Assembly: GCF_030013595.1 (NCBI RefSeq)
Contig: NZ_CP122768.1
DNA: 64,000 nucleotides
Strand: one strand, 5' to 3'
Source of the DNA: Escherichia coli
GTDB lineage: Bacteria > Pseudomonadota > Gammaproteobacteria > Enterobacterales > Enterobacteriaceae
Below the pieces are notes generated by a model that worked only from the letters and a program-made list of their open reading frames with translations, did not search any database and was not told the origin of the DNA. The stretch's first letter is position 1; the number at the start of each line of letters is the position of its first letter. Shown here piece by piece: positions 51,580 through 51,846 of this stretch. The position numbers and the translations under genes are program-made.

Positions 51580-51846
51580 ATGGAATGGCTGGTTAAAAAG
51601 TCATGCTGTGATAAACAAGATAACAGACATGTACTTAAGCTTTGTGATGCTGGTGGCACGATAAAAATGATCGCCGAAGTGAAGAGTGACTTCGCCGTGA
51701 AAGTGGGGGATTTACTCTCGCCTTTGCAGAATGCGCTTTATTGTATTAATCGTGAAAAGCTGCATACGGTGAAAGTCCTCTCGGCAAGCAGTTATAGCCC
51801 CGATGAGTGGGAACGGCAGTGTAAAGCGGCAGGGAAAACTCAGTAA
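51580..51846 (+). CDS. pmrD: signal-transduction connector protein PmrD (88 aa)
   Basis: ORF 51550..51846 trimmed to the ATG at 51580 ([15 protein letters not shown]...). Confidence 0.9.

Follow-up and report, generated by a model that had tools for sequence, protein, structure and literature searches.

In the 64,000-nt window of Escherichia coli DNA analysed here, pmrD and arnF meet tail to tail at what is likely to be an ordinary, inherited junction, at which each of the two transcription units is predicted to end inside the other, because no intergenic DNA lies between them. Transcripts of pmrD, probably joined by read-through from the men operon, would run 138–172 nt into antisense arnF, as far as a stem-loop at 51977–52018. 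The pmrD-sense RNA would then end near 52010–52030 and be complementary to the last ~60 codons of the arnF mRNA. The stem-loop would most likely fix or protect the 3' end of this RNA once its synthesis had ended, by weak intrinsic termination or by Rho; it is read as a 3'-end fixer, not as a canonical terminator, because its U-tract is poor. On the other strand, arn transcripts would run on antisense to pmrD as C-rich, G-poor RNA, and Rho would most likely halt them at various points, with 3' ends lying within or beyond pmrD. The two RNAs would thus be complementary over at least 7 nt, and probably over ~180 nt or more. Cross-regulation, by polymerase collision or by RNase III cleavage of the duplex, would be a possible side effect, and any such effect at the junction is probably small compared with the direct control of the pmrD promoter by PhoP and PmrA.

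Geometry of the junction and identity of the genes

The coding region of pmrD, as given in the list of open reading frames, occupies positions 51580–51846 of the + strand (88 aa) and ends with CAG TAA, the stop codon TAA being located at 51844–51846. The coding region of arnF occupies positions 51840–52226 of the − strand (128 aa) and ends with TAC TGA, where TGA is the complement of the TCA at 51840–51842. Read directly, the letters of the window at 51835–51851 are AAAACTCAGTAACGTTG, and the two coding regions, running tail to tail on opposite strands, share within them the 7 bp TCAGTAA (51840–51846, both strands), which include both stop codons with 1 nt between them. The pmrD product matches the NCBIfam PmrD equivalog NF011994 with 167.3 bits (cut-off 96), covering positions 1–85 of the 85-position profile, and homologues carry Pfam PF11183. 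The arnF product is a full-length match to the NCBIfam ArnF equivalog NF002816, with 139.6 bits (cut-off 99). Direct reading, the open reading frames, and these equivalog matches bear out the stop coordinates and the 7-bp opposite-strand overlap described in an earlier note on this DNA. That note also held that no terminator hairpin lies between the two genes, which is true, albeit trivially, since there is no spacer to hold one.

The shortness of both products is the sole reason to ask whether the overlap could be an artefact of annotation, with one stop or frame mis-called, and no point in support of such an error was found. Each protein is matched over its full length by a curated equivalog model, each of the two stops is the first in-frame stop, and Salmonella and four Escherichia species independently show the same gene ends. 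The probability left to a mis-called stop or frame is negligible, and this reading is already effectively refuted.

As the last gene of arnBCADTEF, arnF lies downstream of arnE, an operon order that is seen in the closest genome, HCP5S3_I2. Its upstream neighbours on the − strand are arnE (52226–52561; NCBIfam NF011625, 214 bits) and arnT. The arnE stop and the arnF start overlap by 1 nt (52226), and arnT and arnE by 4 nt (52558–52561); these overlaps are of the ordinary same-strand type that is linked with translational coupling. Upstream of pmrD, and co-directional with it on the + strand, lies menE (50115–51470; NCBIfam NF006539, 757 bits). The terminator scan found no terminator-like site after menE in the spacer that separates the two genes and carries the pmrD promoter region (51471–51579, + strand), and transcripts of the men operon may therefore run on into pmrD. 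The same spacer contains a GGTTTA half-site (51523–51528) and a GTTAAT-N6-ATTAAT repeat (51532–51549), which resemble halves of PhoP and PmrA boxes. A promoter-like site on the − strand (51517–51544; TTTACA, 16 nt, TATTAT; 10/12 matches), directed antisense into menE, may be a chance match in A+T-rich DNA.

Distribution of the overlap

Of 5426 complete E. coli genomes, 5419 contain the 901-bp junction region. An identical 7-bp overlap is annotated by PGAP in all eight genomes inspected, namely K-12 MG1655, HCP5S3_I2, and six further E. coli genomes spread across the identity range, O157:H7 included. The 7-bp overlap is the standard E. coli arrangement, not a feature of this strain, and has already been annotated as well as catalogued.

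Other species were covered by 80 loci gathered via ArnT, in which the stops of pmrD and arnF were then located. The 7-bp overlap is also present in Escherichia sp. E1V33, E. whittamii, and E. albertii, there with the sequence TCAGTGA or TCAGTAG, giving the consensus TCAGTRR across four Escherichia species; PmrD of these three other species is just 58–78% identical, yet the overlap is still 7 bp. The overlap is 6 bp in Salmonella enterica (TCATGA), and in the 11 pmrD-bearing Citrobacter loci the two genes are separated by a gap of 0 to +9 nt, with no overlap. The residues encoded across the overlap also differ (KTQ, NRQ, or KSQ in PmrD; QRY or KNH in ArnF). Since both the length of the overlap and the encoded tail residues vary, there is no sign of selection on the 7 bp, and selection on these 7 bp as such was rejected as an explanation. 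To judge from these loci, the close abutment of pmrD and arnF is inherited in the whole pmrD-bearing clade and not recurrent, with the exact overlap being labile.

In four Citrobacter lineages that have no pmrD, menE converges directly on arnF with a gap of +4 to +11 nt or, in C. gillenii, with an overlap of 53 nt (the menE–arnF junctions of pmrD-less Citrobacter are found in loci L016, L018, L019, and L020, at ~6330–6420 in each). By this comparison, pmrD counts as an insert that is present or absent between these two genes. In Phytobacter, Kosakonia, Raoultella, Klebsiella, and others, unrelated convergent reading frames of 148–438 aa abut or overlap the arnF stop, with a gap of 0 or +1 or an overlap of 4–50 nt (loci L021, L022, L025–L027, L030, L035, L036, L046, and L048). 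A strong canonical terminator after arnF is seen in a few genera only, such as Yokenella (L055) and Pantoea ananatis (L075). Tight packing is seen generally at the end of the arn operon.

A stem-loop within arnF

The first and strongest structure on the pmrD-sense strand past the pmrD stop is the stem-loop at 51977–52018 (+ strand), 138–172 nt beyond that stop. Its core (51985–52010, + strand) has the sequence CTGAGCAAGGC-ATAG-GCTTTGCTTAG and lies within the arnF codons for the peptide LSKAYALLS. On the + strand the dG of the stem-loop is −20.6 kcal/mol and its z −3.6, a stability reached by 0 of 200 shuffles. On the arnF-sense strand two of the G.U pairs turn into A.C mismatches, which makes the complementary hairpin weaker there (z −2.65). 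The scan of positions 51300–52700 against Rfam (E<=1) found no known RNA family.

The stem-loop is conserved across Escherichia, Salmonella, and Citrobacter, with compensatory changes, in carriers that all belong to one clade. Of the cells of the stem-loop pairs, 87% are paired in a set of 21 distinct sequences drawn from Escherichia and Citrobacter, compared with 30–40% in slid controls, a difference that partly reflects shared descent of the lineages. Six pairs are changed on both sides, and one of them, for example, is G-C in 9, C-G in 6, and G.U in 4 sequences; the number of covarying pairs is not significant against the shuffle control (141/500). Citrobacter lineages that lack pmrD, and in which menE and arnF converge, also retain the stem-loop, which suggests that it may serve co-directional men/pmrD transcription and not pmrD alone.

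Two other origins of the stem-loop have to be weighed against a role at the 3' end of pmrD, since the hairpin might be a by-product of the peptide LSKAYALLS and of common ancestry, or it might act in the arnF mRNA. Given Leu CTN and Ser AGY codons, this peptide fixes 8 of the 11 core pairs. As these pairs fall in first or second codon positions, the null model was built by shuffling synonymous codons within arnF with the protein kept. In 14 of 15 lineages the hairpin on the pmrD-sense strand is stronger than expected under this null (p ≤ 0.005 in 10 of them), although these counts, too, partly reflect the relatedness of the lineages; the codon shuffles give ~−8 to −11 kcal/mol and the observed values on the pmrD-sense strand are −16 to −30. 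A by-product of the peptide is thereby unlikely to be the whole story. The three wobble–wobble pairs argue in the same direction, as they stay paired in ~86–90% of the sequences, in the types GC, CG, and GU. So does the comparison with other genera, in most of which the homologous region has little or no excess stability, including genera that keep the same peptide; Phytobacter and Kosakonia retain LSKAYALLS with only a weaker hairpin. That all carriers of the stem-loop fall in one clade remains in favor of ancestry.

As for an action in the arnF mRNA, the arnF-sense hairpin is as strong as the pmrD-sense one, or stronger, in E. albertii, C. amalonaticus, and Citrobacter sp. Awk 4, and the poor U-tract on both strands fits this origin and the by-product alike. 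Against the codon null, however, the arnF-sense hairpin reaches only p 0.1–0.25 in E. coli, E. whittamii, Salmonella, and Citrobacter FP75. The non-Watson–Crick cells of the 11-bp core, 28 G.U versus 4 A.C, speak against these alternatives; G.U pairs only on the pmrD-sense strand. We regard it as possible, rather than probable, that one of these two origins accounts for the stem-loop in place of a role at the pmrD 3' end.

The preferred reading is that the stem-loop at 51977–52018 is probably a 3'-end element of pmrD/men transcripts, as predicted from its position and conservation. By the comparisons above it behaves as a conserved structured RNA element, with pairs kept beyond coding constraint, in carriers that are related. 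The T-scores of its tails are 1.1–1.9 on the + strand and 1.0–1.6 on the − strand, where a perfect tract would score 7.15; a canonical or bidirectional terminator was rejected on account of these poor U-tracts. With moderate confidence, the predicted element may be described as 3'-end-defining or protective, and not as a canonical terminator. The stem-loop is a new detail that had been overlooked in the earlier note.

Termination signals on the two strands

The consensus scan found no terminator-like site just past the stop of pmrD or of arnF, and the only sites that it returned are weak ones inside coding regions. The folds of the 150 nt after each of the two stops equal those of shuffled sequences (z about 0). 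The looser scan for a hairpin plus T-run found nothing convincing on the arn-sense strand. No arn-sense hairpin at or below −14 kcal/mol was found in 44-nt windows over ~870 nt, from 51839 to ~50970, a stretch that reaches across the whole of pmrD and the spacer into the end of menE. Inside arnF, a small terminator-like hairpin followed by a T-run is present on the − strand (51932–51947; CTTCCCGGCTGGGAAG then GGACTTTTTC), ~90 nt before the arnF stop; with 6 pairs it is weak, and it has probably arisen by chance.

The untranslated arn read-through RNA, antisense to pmrD, has a C/G ratio of 1.5–2.7 at 51515–51839 (− strand), which makes this region a candidate zone for Rho loading and termination, and the untranslated pmrD read-through RNA at 51860–52000 (+ strand) is also C-rich and G-poor, with a ratio of 1.5–1.8 in the composition scan. 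The feature sought for Rho-dependent termination is an untranslated, C-rich, G-poor stretch of ~80 nt or more past the stop; on either RNA this bias is a matter of composition only and is common in any RNA antisense to coding sequence. The lack of a hairpin, together with the C-rich, G-poor untranslated RNA, suggests that arn transcripts may end by Rho-dependent termination.

Overlapping bidirectional terminators between convergent genes were reportedly the subject of SEnd-seq work by Ju, Li, and Liu in 2019. What the present junction has in common with such terminators, and with the RNAP collision model (bioRxiv 2022.10.23.513370), is a palindromic hairpin where convergent units meet, with head-on polymerases expected. 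The present hairpin differs from them in lying 138–172 nt beyond the pmrD stop, inside arnF, and in having no flanking A- or U-tracts (T-scores of 1.0–1.9 out of 7.15); moreover, stopping the arnF-sense RNA at this hairpin would truncate arnF. With the stem-loops that set the 3' ends of Rho-terminated RNAs after exonuclease trimming (Dar and Sorek, NAR 2018, PMC6061677) it shares both a stable, U-tract-less hairpin past the stop and a C-rich, G-poor untranslated RNA, but the role in the pmrD case is a proposed one.

Transcript overlap and its possible regulatory role

Because the coding regions overlap by 7 bp, the transcripts of pmrD and of the arn operon must overlap if both are transcribed. 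The overlap of convergent 3' ends claimed in the earlier note follows directly from this, and the arnF–pmrD pair is indeed found among the 165 convergent excludons of MG1655 reported with ExcludonFinder (Sanmartin et al., NAR 2025, PMC12288877), for which the criterion was transcript overlap in at least 50% of 58 MG1655 RNA-seq data sets, so that such a listing is nearly automatic for genes with overlapping coding regions. The pair is named there as functionally related, and convergent pairs could not be validated with p19 dsRNA data (PMC12288877). The earlier interpretation is upheld in part: the coordinates, the overlap, the absent intergenic terminator, and the overlapping transcripts hold, and the excludon idea was already catalogued.

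The catalogued case and the present one share the gene pair, the idea of a convergent 3' overlap, and possible interference and RNase III processing, as well as the junction itself, which in the present strain is that of MG1655. The published entry differs in being part of a catalogue of RNA-seq coverage only, without 3'-end positions or a reciprocal-expression test for arnF–pmrD (PMC12288877), and the present strain differs in having IS10 at the head of the arn operon. The SMRT-Cappable-seq supplement and the Term-seq supplement of Adams et al. 2021 have no rows with mapped 3' ends for pmrD or arnF. The literature search found no published study of interference at the pmrD–arnF junction.

In Salmonella, PmrA-P directly represses pmrD at its promoter, which constitutes the known negative loop (PMC3140997). 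According to the literature, pmrD is activated by PhoP. PmrD of E. coli is reported not to activate PmrA/PmrB at low Mg2+ (PMC3140997), whereas activity is reported under some conditions (bioRxiv 2020.05.05.080051). The description of arn in the earlier note as the operon that pmrD indirectly activates is accordingly true of E. coli only conditionally. The PhoP–PmrD–PmrA connector circuit (Kato, Latifi, and Groisman 2003, as related in PMC3140997) involves the same genes and, in the account given there, a negative loop from PmrA to pmrD, an effect that the model of the earlier note would reinforce; in that account, the loop differs from the present arrangement in that PmrA-P acts by binding the pmrD promoter and not via convergent transcription, and it is a Salmonella loop said to be absent in E. 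coli.

We can ask whether the junction is a functional excludon, in which arn read-through driven by PmrA or by IS10, antisense to pmrD, would lower PmrD output by polymerase collision, promoter occlusion, or RNase III cleavage of the duplex, and thereby form a second, cis-acting negative loop. Read-through over all of pmrD is physically possible, with no terminator or arn-sense hairpin for ~870 nt, but the C-rich untranslated antisense RNA is a typical Rho substrate, and read-through may rarely reach the pmrD promoter, 270–330 nt away. PmrA activity and pmrD expression are inversely related in Salmonella, as such a loop would have it, although PmrA-P acting at the pmrD promoter already accounts for this relation (PMC3140997). 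All three genera that carry pmrD retain a spacing close to zero, yet an equally tight abutment is found with menE and with unrelated neighbours, where such logic is absent. The listing of arnF–pmrD as a functionally related excludon (PMC12288877) is a further point in its favor, against which stands the absence of any pmrD or arnF entry in the supplementary tables of the p19 dsRNA study. On balance, a functional excludon of this kind seems unlikely.

A more elaborate form of the same idea, which we consider very doubtful, combines several of the features described here. The arn read-through would act as a second cis-acting brake on PmrD, independent of the PmrA box, with the stem-loop setting the length of the duplex, and read-out from pOUT of IS10 would keep pmrD damped, thus uncoupling PhoPQ from PmrAB. 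In this joint reading, IS10 pOUT would make arn transcription constitutive in the present strain.

Were the junction regulatory, the PhoPQ–PmrD–PmrAB connector circuit, which controls polymyxin and colistin resistance and is among the best-studied two-component connector circuits, would gain feedback at the level of transcription, and the junction would supply a concrete example among the many catalogued E. coli excludons. The regulatory meaning of the overlap is probably minor. What the finding mainly shows, as matters stand, is the absence of a dedicated terminator between the arn operon and pmrD; it has two by-products, namely a candidate pmrD 3' end (the stem-loop at 51977–52018) and an IS10 insertion that cuts the arn operon off from its PmrA promoter. 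The stem-loop in arnF and this unique insertion are the only points that merit follow-up.

IS10 at the head of the arn operon

The IS10/ISVsa5 copy (59195–60523, + strand, 1329 bp) has the ends CTGATGAATCCCC and GGGGATCTCTCAG, the known terminal inverted repeats, and is flanked by the 9-bp target duplication GACATTGCT at 59186–59194 and 60524–60532. It encodes a transposase of 402 aa of the IS4 family (404 bits), and it is 100% identical to copies that PGAP names ISVsa5, an equivalent of IS10R. Comparison with the closest genome, HCP5S3_I2, reveals the empty site. These ends, the duplication, and the empty site substantiate the part of the earlier note concerned with IS10 at the arn operon: the element is present, and its outside end, on the pOUT side, faces arnB, whose ATG (59188–59190, − strand) lies 4 bp away from it. 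The IS10–arnB junction is found in 0 of 5426 complete E. coli genomes, and the literature search found no reports of IS10 upstream of arnB.

The simple promoter scan did not call pOUT; its presence is presumed from the 100% identity of this copy to standard IS10/ISVsa5 copies. Read-out from pOUT of IS10 is said to activate adjacent genes, reportedly in the work of Simons et al. in 1983 and of Ciampi, Schmid, and Roth in 1982. The present copy resembles those read-out systems in having its outside end towards arnB, so that pOUT transcripts can enter the arn operon. It differs from them in that the insertion also removes the native Shine–Dalgarno sequence of arnB, and pOUT may supply more or less transcription than the displaced PmrA promoter. 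Since IS10 comes between the arn operon and its PmrA-dependent promoter and also takes away the native ribosome-binding site of arnB, read-out from pOUT is set against these two losses, and arn transcription, and hence the RNA antisense to pmrD, may therefore go up or down with the insertion. An effect on the phenotype is likelier to come from the IS10 insertion than from the 7-bp overlap.
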